A stretch of 64,000 bases of DNA from Thiogranum sp. (GTDB lineage Bacteria > Pseudomonadota > Gammaproteobacteria > DSM-19610): positions 1,412-65,411 of the forward strand of contig JAGFJP010000040.1 in NCBI GenBank assembly GCA_024102665.1, read 5' to 3'. Each line of letters opens with the position of its first letter. The first letter of the stretch is position 1. Below are positions 54,929-59,022 of this stretch, piece by piece. The notes under the pieces were generated by a model, which was not told where the DNA came from, made no database searches, and saw only the letters and a list, made by a program, of their open reading frames with translations. The position numbers were made by a program, and so were the translations under genes.

Positions 54929-55402
54929 TCAATGCGAGCGCTCCTGCGGTGTCCGGACATCCAGCGCCACCTTCAGATGATCCTTGTGTTCTCCGAGCAG
55001 GCGCAAGGTCTCCTCGATATACCGGCGCGAACTGATTTCGCCGGCAACATATTCCCCGAGCAGACCGACCCAGCGCTTGTGGATGATGCAGGCGGATCGC
55101 GCGCCATCGTCGGCCAGCGGGCAGTCGGGACAGCGCCGGTCGGGCAACACGCCCGACAGCGTCTGCGTCTGCCAGTCCCGGCGGTAACGTTCGGCGTGTT
55201 GCGCAATCCAGTCGAGGGCCGCCTGTTCCCGGCGGTTCTCCGGGAAGCTCTCGATGTGACGGCGGACTGCGGCGAACTGGTCGCGCAGATACTGCTCGTC
55301 CGACAGGTTCAGGGCGTCTGCCTCCCGGACCACGAAGCGGGTTATCAGGGCAAGCATCGGATCGTCGAGCGTCATGGGGGTGAAACCGCTGTCGGAGGTC
55401 AA
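54929..55402 (-). CDS. small hypothetical protein with CxxC motif
   Basis: The TTG at 55402 overlaps the upstream stop (TTGA). An alternative ATG lies at 55375. Contains RRCPDCPLADDGARSAC. Confidence 0.45.
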   Translation of the reverse strand: MTSDSGFTPMTLDDPMLALITRFVVREADALNLSDEQYLRDQFAAVRRHIESFPENRREQAALDWIAQHAERYRRDWQTQTLSGVLPDRRCPDCPLADDGARSACIIHKRWVGLLGEYVAGEISSRRYIEETLRLLGEHKDHLKVALDVRTPQERSH

Positions 55403-58400
55403 TGTAACCGCGATCGCTGGAACCGGGCCTTGAAGCGTTGCAGCAACGAAGGAATGCGCTCGCCGTGCGTCGGGTCGGCATCGGCGATCGATGCCTTGTC
55501 CGGGGCGAACGAGGTGATCATCCGGCTCCAGTGTATTACCCGGCTTTCCGCGACGCTGCCCGGTGGCGCCAGCGGGTCGGCGCCAAGGGTTCCGACCAGG
55601 CTCTTGAGCCAGCTCTTGCGCTGCACTTCCCTGAGCTTCTGCGTGGCCATGTCCAGGCGCCCGGCGATACCGAGACGGTCAGCTTCGTCGGCAAAATGCG
55701 AATCATCGAGGAAGGTCTGCAGATTGCTGACATGGCGTTTCCACAATTCGATATCACGCAGCTGTTTCACCTTCAGCCGTTCCCGGTACCAGTCGGACTT
55801 GAGCAGCGATTCGCGGGTGAACATGGCGCGCAGTTTCGGGTGGCGCGCATCCATGCCGCGGTATGAGCCGCTTGCCATGATATGCAGCAGCGCCTGCAAC
55901 GGCGGGCAGGCGTCCTCGATGCTGCCGTCATCGAGATAACCCTGCGCGACGCGTTGCTGGGCTTCGACGATATTATTGATGCCGTCGACGAACACCTCCA
56001 GGTCCTGGGTTTCCGGCTTGAGGATTTCCTCGGTGAACACCGCCTGCGGGTGATCGAAAATCTTGCCGAAAAAACCGTGCACGAACTGTTCGGTGATGCG
56101 GTAGCCGAGGCGGCTGGCCAGCACTCTGGCGCCCTTATGGTCGAAATCCTCCAGCGGTTCCAGATAGCCGTGCTCGATCAGGTATTCGGGCTGGCGTTCT
56201 TCGGGTTCCAGGCGCGCCCAGATTTCCGGCACCAGCAGGCTGATGTCGTGGTCGACGCGCACGTGAGGGCCGATGTAACCGGCCGAACTCGAGAAGCCGT
56301 GATAGCCGGTCAGAATGAACGACACCAGTGCATTGTTGAGGTCCGCGGTGGGTCGCAGGGCATTGAACGGCCCCTTGGTCAGCGCGCCTTCGCTGCCGGC
56401 GCCCGTGGTCGACGGTGACTTGCCGGTGAGGCTGCAGATGAAGTCCATGAACAGTTCCGGCAGTTCCTGGTAATGGATGGGGTTGTACACCGCCAGGGAA
56501 CGGATGCCGGGTTCGGGCGGGTTGTTGCGCCGGCCCGCGAGCACCGCGTCGACGGGGTGGCAAACGGCGGTGTTCATGTCCAGCTTGCGCTTGAAGCGCG
56601 TGCTGACATCGGCAAGGTATCGGCGCGCCGGCCGGGCCAGGTCGGGCCGGGTCTGCAGATAGCGCGGATTCTTCGAGGGTCCTCCGTCGACGCGGCGCGG
56701 GTGCGCCGAGGAAACCGCATAACCCGCCTTGTCCTGGTGCGCTTTCTTCAGAAGCTTGCGCATCGGTGGCGTAAAGCGGCAGAAGGTATGCACGTCCTCC
56801 ACCAGCGCCGCCAGCTCCGCGCCATTGAGCGGATGCCAGTTGGCCAGGAAATTGTCCGGCTGCGACATGTCTTTCTCGGTTTGCCTGTCAAAGCCGGGGT
56901 GAATGGCGTCATCGGGACGCTGGAACAGCCGGTATTCGCAGTTCTTCGCCAGTTTGACGCTGCGTCTGCTGTCCTGCGCCGGTCCGCAACTGGCGACACA
57001 CTCGGCCGGCACCACGACCGAGGCCGTGATGTCGTCCTCCATCTGCACTTTTTCGGTGGCGATATAGTCCTGGCGCAGCTTGAAGGTGCGCCACTTGCCT
57101 TCGCGGTCGAAACCGACGCGCAGATACGAGGCGACGATGTTGCGGCCATCGAGTTTCAGTTCGTGCGCGGGGGCCCCGTCCACTTCGTCCACTGACAGGT
57201 GATCGCGCCAGCGATCGCCCCATTCGACGCGATAGAATCGCTTGATCAGAAATGCCAGCGCGAGGATGCGCGGGGAAATCGACGCCAGCCAGGCGTTGTA
57301 TTCATCGGTGCAGGTCGATGTCGGCGTCAGCAGCTTGATCACCGAACCCAGGCTGCGCTCGGGGCTGAGCGGTTTGCGGGTTGGATCGCGGTCCTGGTTT
57401 TCGAAACCGGGTTTGAAGCGCCGGGTGTAGTCCTTGTCGAAAATCGCCTGCACCTGGTCGAGATCCTTTTCCAGGTCGTCGACGAACAGCGGGCGATAGA
57501 TGACTGCGTCGTTCAGCGACTTGGAGATCTCGGATTTGCCGCCACCGGAGACTGTCGACGGTTTGTGGCAGAAAGTGCCTTCGGAGTTCATCCCTACCAG
57601 CCGCCACGAAGGCGCGCCGGGATGCTTTTTCATTTCGATCTTGTAACCGCTCGGCTGCATGTAGATTTTTCCGGGATGCAGGCGCAGCGTCTGCAGCGTA
57701 TCGTCCTGGTACCAGGTGACGGTCTGCGCGTTGAGGTCCATGCGCACTTTCTGCGGAATATAGATGATATCCGGATACTTCCTGTCGATGGCGTAACCTT
57801 CAGGCTGCACATCCATGATGTCACCGTAACGTTCCACCATGTCGGCGAACGAATAGCCGGGTTTCTGGGTGCGGCTGTCGACGCCGAATTCCTCGCCGTG
57901 GTTGCGGCGCGGGAAAGCCAGCGCACCACCGGCGTGTTCCTCCTCGGCCAGGCCGTAGAGGTTGGCGGCGAAGCCGATCTGGGTTTTGACTTCCTTTTTG
58001 CAGTAACCGAAATAGTTGTCGGCGAGCAAGGTGACAATCACGCCGGATTCGTCGCGCGCGGTGATCTTGAAGGCATGGCCGTCGTTGTAGAGTTCGAACG
58101 GCTCCTTCCAGCACATGCCTTCACGGCGTTGCCGCTCGTTGGCTTCGTCCCAGTGCGGCAGTCCCACCTCCTGCTTGGTCAGGCCGACGAGGTGCGGCGC
58201 CAGGATCACGCAGCCGGTATGACCGCTCCAGTGCTCGACATCCAGCCCCGCATCGCACTCGGCGAGATAGGGATTGCCGGCATTGCCAAAAATGCTTTCC
58301 ACGAAATCCAGGTTGCTGACCAGGTTGCCTGGCGCGAAGAAACGGATCTCCATGGTCTTTTCCGGTTCCCTGCCCGGGATCTCCGGACATACCACCGGAC

Positions 58401-59022
58401 GCAGCAGCAGGGATGCGAACATGCGTGCCGGTTCGGGCAATCCGGCGGTGAAGGGGACGGTCAGCAGCTCCTGCGGTGGATTCAGCGCTTTCGCCAGCAG
58501 GTGGGCGAAGGTGCGCTTGGGCACGGCTTTCTTGTCGCCCGGTATCGGCAAGCCGCCCTCGCTGATATGGAATGAGCCCTTGGTGGTGCGGCGGTCGCTG
58601 GCCGGGTTGTGCAACACGCCCTGCTTGACCCGGTAACTGGAAACGATATCCGAGTGAAACTCGTCCTTGCCCATGGGCAGCGACAGTTCACGCGCCACGC
58701 CGTGGCGATCGAGGATGAAGGTCTGCGTGGGCAACGTGGGTATCGCGTCGACGTGGAGATCTTCGAAATAGCGCGCGAGGAAATTCTGGATACGCTGGTC
58801 GGCCCAGCAGTGGTAATCGGAGAGCAGGCGGTTCTTCTCGCGGTAGCTTTTCAGCAGGTCGCGGGAAATCCCGAAAAAGCGCTCGACCTCACCGGATACG
58901 CAGGTCGGTTGACCGGAGGATGCCAGTTTCAGGTTGATGTAGAGCTGCACTTTCTGGCGCTCGTCTTCCGGGCTCTCCGCGGCCTTGTTCAACCCGAGTG
59001 CTTGGGCAAAATCCATGGACAT
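55399..59022 (-). CDS. large (1207 aa) cytosolic protein of unassigned function; candidate PPi-type PEP carboxykinase family
   Basis: Uninterrupted ORF with protein-like composition and no signal peptide or TM helix. P-loop-like [13 protein letters not shown] and [13 protein letters not shown]. The size matches the ~130-kDa PPi-PEPCK class. The second ATG (59016) has better spacing to GGGAG. Confidence 0.45.
   Translation of the reverse strand: [1207 protein letters not shown]

Follow-up and report, generated by a model that had tools for sequence, protein, structure and literature searches.

A Thiogranum-Like Gammaproteobacterium Carries a Very Likely Pyrophosphate-Dependent Phosphoenolpyruvate Carboxykinase among Its Unannotated Genes

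The stretch of DNA analyzed here (the window) comprises 64,000 nucleotides of Thiogranum sp. (GenBank assembly GCA_024102665.1, contig JAGFJP010000040.1, positions 1,412 to 65,411 of the forward strand). One of its genes very likely encodes a cytosolic pyrophosphate (PPi)-dependent phosphoenolpyruvate (PEP) carboxykinase (PEPCK), an enzyme also known as PEP carboxytransphosphorylase (EC 4.1.1.38). As a full-length orthologue, it is collinear with both crystallized PPi-dependent PEPCKs (PPi-PEPCKs), and its activity is suggested by approximately 50% identity to these characterized actinobacterial enzymes. An initial annotation, made from the DNA letters and a list of open reading frames (ORFs), had put the protein forward as a candidate PPi-PEPCK. 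This proposal is borne out by sequence matches with E = 0 and by a Foldseek match of the predicted fold with template modeling (TM) scores of 0.90/0.96; significant similarity to the family is thus clearly present in both sequence and predicted structure. The gene is located as follows:

55399..59016, minus strand: coding sequence of the very likely PPi-dependent PEPCK, 1205 amino acids, with the stop codon at 55399-55401

When compared by phmmer with all PDB chain sequences, the protein has exactly two matches, both with E = 0. One is the Propionibacterium freudenreichii PPi-dependent PEPCK, 8E1U (1216 bits, query residues 21-1150 against chain residues 5-1128), and the other is the Actinomyces israelii PPi-PEPCK, 6K31 (1198 bits, query residues 55-1150). 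With a profile built from 18 diverse homologues, 8E1U and 6K31 score 1485 and 1481 bits, respectively, and beyond these two the search of the PDB at E <= 10 returned just noise. The size of the polypeptide fits the family as well, as PPi-PEPCKs are proteins of ~130 kDa and ~1100-1200 amino acids, roughly double the size of the PEPCKs that use ATP or GTP; the calculated mass of 136.1 kDa agrees with the ~136 kDa that had been estimated from length.

The initial annotation had described the protein as having no obvious family, which holds for the local libraries: the Pfam-A copy, which is without the PF26300 model, and NCBIfam both returned 0 families. Because these libraries return no family, the protein looks unassignable and every close homologue is called a “hypothetical protein” at NCBI, much as the initial annotation had said of such homologues. 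The description does not hold in general, as PF26300 (PEPCK_PPi_lobe_2) is listed in the precomputed annotation of an identical protein (P0001) and of homologues, and UniRef gives the name “PPi-type phosphoenolpyruvate carboxykinase” to homologues from Thiogranum longum and vent metagenomes with 75-76% identity. Since PF26300 exists, the zero local matches reflect the age or coverage of the libraries, and not novelty.

The predicted structure leads to the same family. An AlphaFold2 model of residues 6-1205, computed from a 25-sequence alignment, has a mean predicted local distance difference test (pLDDT) score of 86.4 and a predicted TM score (pTM) of 0.85. In a Foldseek comparison with the PDB, all 8E1U and 6K31 chains match this model with TM scores of 0.88-0.90 (query-normalized) and 0.94-0.96 (target-normalized), a root mean square deviation (rmsd) of 2.1-3.0 Å and 49-51% identity; for the superpositions with TM scores of 0.90/0.96 the rmsd is about 2.1-2.3 Å. 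There is no inserted or missing domain relative to the solved PPi-PEPCKs, except for a C-terminal tail. Ranks 11-50 of the Foldseek matches consist exclusively of ATP-PEPCKs and GTP-PEPCKs, which cover about half of the model. The ATP-dependent enzymes (Thermus, E. coli, Actinobacillus, Anaerobiospirillum, Trypanosoma) match with E values of 1e-9 to 1e-5 and target TM scores of 0.54-0.67, and the GTP-dependent enzymes (Corynebacterium, rat) with E values of about 1e-5 to 1e-4. Based on its predicted fold, the protein is a PEPCK core to which the additional lobes typical of PPi-PEPCKs are joined.

The relationship to the nucleotide-dependent enzymes is visible only by fold and motif spacing; BLASTP against E. 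coli PckA yielded chance segments only. ATP-PEPCK (E. coli PckA, PF01293) and GTP-PEPCK (rat cPEPCK, PF00821 and PF17297) have the core fold in common with the window protein (Foldseek E 1e-9 to 1e-4, target TM 0.44-0.67), and the motif pattern R / YxGxxKK / H / SGxGK[ST] / DD / NxR of E. coli PckA is found in collinear order. The window protein is, however, twice as large and has a long helical C-terminal region; the inserts that lie between its motifs (about 110, 150 and 60 residues) correspond to extra lobes. In contrast to the ATP- and GTP-PEPCKs, no nucleotide-binding elements were identified in it, and its phosphoryl donor is predicted to be PPi. The common fold and motif pattern support the notion that the protein works like a PEPCK and has a distant common ancestry with these enzymes, and not that it belongs to the ATP/GTP families.

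The conserved positions of the family were determined from 18 sequences with 27-75% identity to the query and from a second alignment of 25 sequences with 27-85% identity. In the 18 sequences 45 columns are invariant, the 25-sequence alignment gives the same set, and all of these columns are kept in the window protein. The invariant set comprises two motifs that had been singled out in the initial annotation as PEPCK-like (residues 336-348 and 490-502 in 1207-residue numbering; all other residue numbers are those of the 1205-residue product). Both are invariant in the 25 sequences, and their spacing is that of the corresponding segment and the P-loop of E. coli PckA, the comparison sequence being the authentic one from the K-12 record. 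The main motifs are:

58582..58596, minus strand: DRRTT, residues 141-145, with R143 and T145 invariant
57979..58017, minus strand: YFGYCKK segment, residues 334-346, with Y335, G337, K340 and K341 invariant
57922..57945, minus strand: EEEHAGGA, residues 358-365, with H361 and G363 invariant
57517..57555, minus strand: VSGGGKSE, the P-loop/kinase-1a equivalent, residues 488-500, with S490, G493, K494 and E496 invariant
57019..57045, minus strand: QMEDDITAS, residues 658-666, with D661 and D662 invariant at the end of a predicted beta strand
56905..56925, minus strand: FQRPDDA, with R700 and D702 invariant
56653..56676, minus strand: SKNPRYLQ, residues 781-788, with N783 and R785 invariant
56356..56424, minus strand: Gly-rich loop, residues 865-887, with S867, E876, T880, K881 and F884 invariant

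Several of these motifs can be placed opposite residues of E. coli PckA. The spacing of Y335-F-G337-Y-C-K340-K341 is identical to that of Y207-G-G209-E-M-K212-K213, residues that presumably form the substrate/Mn site of the E. coli enzyme. Likewise, S490-G-G-G493-K494-S495 has the spacing of the S250-G-T-G253-K254-T255 P-loop, and residues 488-500 form a strand-loop-helix in the AlphaFold2 model. H361 lies 26 residues past Y335, as compared to 25 residues between Y207 and H232, which makes H361 the putative counterpart of H232, a Mn ligand. The N-x-R spacing of N783-P-R785 is identical to that of N331-T-R333, so that these residues may be equivalent. Judging from collinear order only, R143 would be the counterpart of R65, which we take to be the oxaloacetate/PEP-binding arginine of PckA, and D661 and D662 are candidates for the kinase-2 aspartate pair (D268/D269 in E. 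coli), with R700/D702 as the alternative for this assignment. The Foldseek matches in the PDB include structures of E. coli mutants at Y207, G209, K212, K213, S250, D269 and R65, positions that we take to make up the substrate, metal and phosphoryl site. A further invariant histidine, H923, is found in a VDHDIS motif. The Gly-rich loop differs very little between the window protein, 8E1U and 6K31 and is among the most conserved stretches of the family, yet its pLDDT is just 38-47 (model residues 859-875). Because it is conserved and nevertheless modeled with such low confidence, the loop is a probable mobile active-site lid.

The predicted reaction is the reversible conversion of oxaloacetate and PPi into PEP, CO2 and Pi. 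The reaction of the family is reversible, requires Mg, Mn or Co, and is inhibited by malate (PMC8100219), and PEPCKs in general act through a metal-stabilized enolate (PMC10441589), a mechanism that the ATP/GTP- and PPi-dependent enzymes presumably have in common. If the window protein follows this general mechanism, a divalent metal held by K341, H361 and an aspartate of the D661/D662 type would stabilize the enolate of pyruvate, while the C4 acid would be bound by R143 and R785. PPi would sit in the place of a nucleotide, held by the P-loop (S490-K494-S495) and the Gly-rich loop, and closure of the Gly-rich loop over PPi is suggested. Operating in the direction of carboxylation, the enzyme would convert PEP derived from CO2 fixation into oxaloacetate and keep the energy of the phosphoryl bond as PPi, whereas this energy is lost in the PEP carboxylase reaction.

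Comparison with named relatives places the protein within a large family. P. freudenreichii 8E1U is collinear with it over query residues 21-1150, with 49-50% identity and an rmsd of about 2.1 Å, and has the same P-loop, YFGYCKK-segment, EEEH(S/A)GGA and Gly-rich-loop motifs. Compared with 8E1U, which ends in ...GTLGRQP, the window protein is longer by ~16 residues at the N-terminus and by a tail of 56 residues at the C-terminus. The hosts differ as well, the window deriving from a proteobacterial autotroph and 8E1U from a fermentative actinobacterium. The A. israelii enzyme (6K31; 51% identity, TM 0.89/0.96) differs at its termini in the same manner and, unlike the window protein, has small insertions around alignment residues 400-450. 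Within the Proteobacteria, Thiogranum longum DFR30_1878 has 76% identity and the same architecture of 1205-1206 amino acids including the tail, and proteins of Methylomonas and Methylococcaceae (the Methylotuvimicrobium alcaliphilum WP_014148666 class) have 62-70% identity. The closest homologues (80-85% identity) come from metagenome-assembled genomes (MAGs) of uncultured Ectothiorhodospiraceae and Thiogranum. Since the closest homologues of both this protein and the elongation factor EF-G encoded nearby are from Thiogranum or Ectothiorhodospiraceae, the organism, judged by these sequences, is a Thiogranum-like gammaproteobacterium. Members of this group are known as sulfur-oxidizing autotrophs.

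A database clustered at 90% holds >8000 close homologues, and clustering at 50% leaves 2628 representatives at E <= 1e-3, 742 of them at E <= 1e-30. GTDB species genomes contain at least 596 close relatives. The best 80 were ranked by similarity to the query and are hence a biased sample. Their named hosts include Thiogranum, Sedimenticola, Thiocystis, Thiocapsa, Halochromatium, Methylomonas and Methylococcaceae, and also Sulfuricella, Thiobacillus, Parasulfuritortus, Gallionellaceae, Nitrosomonas and Thiothrix, and are mostly chemolithoautotrophs, phototrophs and methanotrophs. The family has many members and is widespread among Proteobacteria that oxidize sulfur, iron or methane.

Several explanations other than a PPi-PEPCK have to be considered. 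The initial annotation held a novel enzyme to be just as possible, a suggestion that is unsupported, given the E = 0 matches to PPi-PEPCKs. Apart from the empty local Pfam and NCBIfam scans, nothing points to an enzyme without known family or to a spurious long ORF; the matches to solved structures, the numbers of homologues and clusters, the Foldseek fold match and a codon bias typical of the genome lead us to reject this notion, the probability of which is negligible. A nucleotide-dependent (ATP or GTP) PEPCK with extra domains would account for the common core fold and the P-loop-like motif but is extremely improbable, as there is no Pfam match to PEPCK_ATP or PEPCK_GTP, the structural identity is 8-10% to ATP/GTP-PEPCKs as compared to 49-51% to PPi-PEPCKs, and the best matches are deposited as PPi-dependent. 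A subtler possibility is that the protein belongs to the PPi-PEPCK family but that the proteobacterial clade has changed its chemistry, for example toward another phosphoryl donor or another 2-oxo-acid. The moderate identity of just ~50% to the characterized enzymes and the possession by the clade of a C-terminal tail of its own are consistent with such a change. We nevertheless consider it quite unlikely, because the 45 family-invariant columns that are kept include the Gly-rich loop as well as all of the motifs with a putative role in catalysis, the fold matches with a TM score of 0.96, and the tail is the sole difference at the level of domains.

Some observations weigh against the assignment as a PPi-PEPCK or against parts of it. 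No purified (and assayed) enzyme of the proteobacterial clade was found in the literature searched, and the residue equivalence to ATP-PEPCK is drawn from motif spacing and fold, with hhalign giving a probability of only 1.2% for the alignment to E. coli PckA. The genomic context is likewise of no help. Pfam scans of ~40 ORFs in the window revealed no H+-translocating pyrophosphatase (H+-PPase), PPi-dependent phosphofructokinase (PPi-PFK) or PPDK; PEP carboxylase and ATP/GTP-PEPCK were also not found in these scans, and public contigs that extend the window by a few kb contain nothing relevant to a PPi economy. Different neighborhoods surround the gene in T. longum (where it lies at a ccm operon), a Sedimenticola-type MAG and an Ectothiorhodospiraceae MAG, and none of the window's five flanking proteins was recovered by tblastn from 80 related loci (+/-3 kb). 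Because the neighborhood is not conserved and PPi-economy genes are not in the window, context provides no support for a role in a PPi economy. The initial annotation had argued that a PPi-using enzyme would fit such a metabolism; the sulfur-oxidizing, Thiogranum-like lineage agrees with this argument, and the gene content of the window neither supports nor contradicts it.

The window also leaves the in vivo direction of the reaction undecided. An autotroph obtains PEP directly from 3-phosphoglycerate and has to carboxylate C3 to C4 compounds. As CO2 fixation supplies the PEP and a carboxylation is needed for oxaloacetate, the main direction in a Thiogranum-like chemolithoautotroph is probably anaplerotic. 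The historical role of the Propionibacterium enzyme is CO2 fixation, which points in the same direction. Moreover, the orthologue of a gammaproteobacterial methanotroph has been treated as an anaplerotic, reversible PPi-PEPCK (PMC6860931, PMC5802761), and an energy saving through PPi-dependent enzymes has been argued for thiotrophs and thiotrophic symbionts (PMC6593406). A true PPi-PEPCK with a mainly cataplerotic or gluconeogenic role, making PEP from oxaloacetate with PPi that biosynthesis sets free, as when storage compounds or organic acids are consumed, is a real, if less probable, alternative. It is consistent with the reversibility of the reaction (PMC8100219) and with the formation of PEP from malate by M. 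alcaliphilum extracts, as expected for MDH coupled to PPi-PEPCK (PMC6860931). In addition, a glycogen/trehalose cluster in the window (TreS-maltokinase, GlgB, MalQ) indicates that the organism handles storage carbon.

The extent of the gene required one adjustment. The initial annotation had placed a protein of 1207 amino acids at 55399-59022; the six-frame ORF list does contain an ATG-initiated ORF of this length at these positions, on the minus strand, which had not been stated. Its first ATG (59022) is directly abutted by a Shine-Dalgarno sequence, while a second ATG at 59016 lies 6 nt downstream of this sequence and gives 1205 amino acids. All close homologues start at MDFAQ or MDFAH, gene callers also pick the second ATG, and the identical protein P0001 in public gene calls has 1205 residues. 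Because of the Shine-Dalgarno spacing, the public gene calls and the homologue starts, the true start is most likely 59016. As had been noted from the letters, this is the largest gene of the window, the longest ORF being followed by a TreS-maltokinase fusion of 1111 amino acids, and there is no sign of a signal peptide or transmembrane helix: the N-terminus is acidic and not signal-like, and with a maximum hydropathy of 1.33 (Kyte-Doolittle, 19-residue windows) no transmembrane helix is expected. The GC content at third codon positions (GC3) is 0.79, matching the neighboring genes, and the regional GC content is unremarkable. The elements upstream of the gene are:

59023..59027, minus strand: Shine-Dalgarno sequence GGGAG, as seen in the DNA letters themselves, located 6 nt upstream of the start codon at 59016
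59028..59455, minus strand: intergenic leader/promoter region, ~430 bp and non-coding, with an AT-rich block at ~59100-59200

The AT-rich block (e.g., TTATTCTATATTTAAAACATACTTATATGAACTTTTACTATTATCAACATTAACTAATTA) lies in a genome of 61% GC and may be a regulatory or promoter region. A consensus scan of the minus strand found no convincing sigma-70-like site upstream on the strand of the gene, and a scan for a terminator after the gene found none.

The protein has a single unusual feature, its C-terminal tail:

55402..55569, minus strand: clade-specific C-terminal tail of ~55 residues (residues 1150-1205), a linker followed by a terminal basic helix

In the crystallized enzymes and in most homologues, the chain stops shortly after a conserved GT(L/I)GADP(L/M) sequence. 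Among 80 related genomes, 14 encode the tail, namely that of the window protein and 13 others of its clade, which is Thiogranum/Ectothiorhodospiraceae-like and the only one with this tail. The methanotroph, Sedimenticola, Chromatiaceae and betaproteobacterial versions are without the long tail, the Sedimenticola/Chromatiaceae clade having a shorter one of ~17 residues. A conserved (V/I)xxW(S/G)(K/R) patch is followed by a variable acidic linker, modeled by AlphaFold2 with pLDDT below 50, and by a conserved terminal (I/V)P(S/T)LL(Q/E)RFKA(K/R)FQRxR(L/V), predicted as a helix. The net charge of this helix is about +4, and its hydrophobic moment (muH) of about 0.6 is reached by 3-14% of shuffled sequences, so that its moderate amphipathicity is suggestive only. 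The tail could be a targeting or tethering peptide that brings the enzyme to the membrane (e.g., beside an H+-PPase), to another partner or to a compartment, an idea that we regard as unlikely. If true, the PPi from PEP carboxylation would directly drive proton pumping, and PPi energy conservation in sulfur-oxidizing autotrophs would be spatially organized.

The gene is a stand-alone unit that is at most co-transcribed with a lineage-specific ORF of 148 amino acids (54929..55375, minus strand), which begins 23 nt past its stop codon. This ORF has a coding-like GC3 of 0.80 and contains a CPDCP...C...H patch; it has no match in Pfam or NCBIfam. It is found only on contigs of the same organism and not near the PEPCK gene in 80 related genomes, and the idea that it is a conserved partner was rejected, as tblastn did not find it at these loci. 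Next after this ORF is a gene for EF-G (52617..54698, minus strand; TIGR00484, 962 bits), the closest named relatives of which are from Thiogranum sp. (90% identity). It lies outside the usual str operon context, adjoins genes for a TetR regulator and a fatty-acid hydroxylase, and may be a second copy.

Other genes of the window are of separate interest. A topoisomerase VI subunit A/Spo11-like gene (273..1811, plus strand) encodes the TP6A_N, Topo_VI_alpha and Toprim domains, and in public sequence from this organism (contig L091, 863-3666) a Topo VI B-like gene (HATPase_c and Topo-VIb_trans) directly precedes the Topo VI A gene. Such type IIB topoisomerase pairs are uncommon in bacteria, and this one is found in a gammaproteobacterium. 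A storage-glucan cluster (30703..37602, minus strand) consists of MalQ (4-alpha-glucanotransferase), the 1111-residue TreS-maltokinase fusion and GlgB, a set that hints at alpha-glucan synthesis by a maltose-1-phosphate route of the GlgE type; the cluster adjoins a gene for a Na+/Pi cotransporter (37846..39507). A three-gene set (40568..44681, minus strand) encodes the 2Fe-2S, MoCo-binding and FAD-binding subunits of a molybdenum hydroxylase of the CoxS/CoxL/CoxM or xanthine-dehydrogenase type. Three ORFs of 520, 446 and 390 amino acids (59456..61018, 48245..49585 and 49598..50770, all on the minus strand) match the genome in GC3 and were assigned to no family by Pfam or NCBIfam, and the latter two adjoin a gene for a periplasmic solute-binding protein (47111..48241). 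Finally, the C-terminal ~170 residues of a 570-residue ORF (61557..63269, plus strand) are HutZ/HugZ-like (PNPOx fold). The ORF is probably an over-extension, because public gene calls place a 173-residue gene and an opposite-strand 328-residue gene (61620..62606, minus strand) there.

Taken together, the gene is a previously unannotated member of a known, structurally characterized family, and not a new kind of enzyme. The PPi-PEPCK family and its structures have reportedly been published already (Chiba 2015 and 2019; 8E1U; 6K31, Chiba et al. 2019). The presence of PPi-PEPCK in Proteobacteria is also published (PMC6860931). The main value of the finding is one of annotation: with no family model in the NCBI pipeline, thousands of proteobacterial orthologues are labeled as “hypothetical protein”. 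Because of these labels, reconstructions of sulfur-, iron- and methane-oxidizing autotrophs tend to miss the PPi-conserving C3/C4 carboxylation. For the Thiogranum-like organism studied here, recognizing the gene fills the PEP-oxaloacetate node of metabolism.

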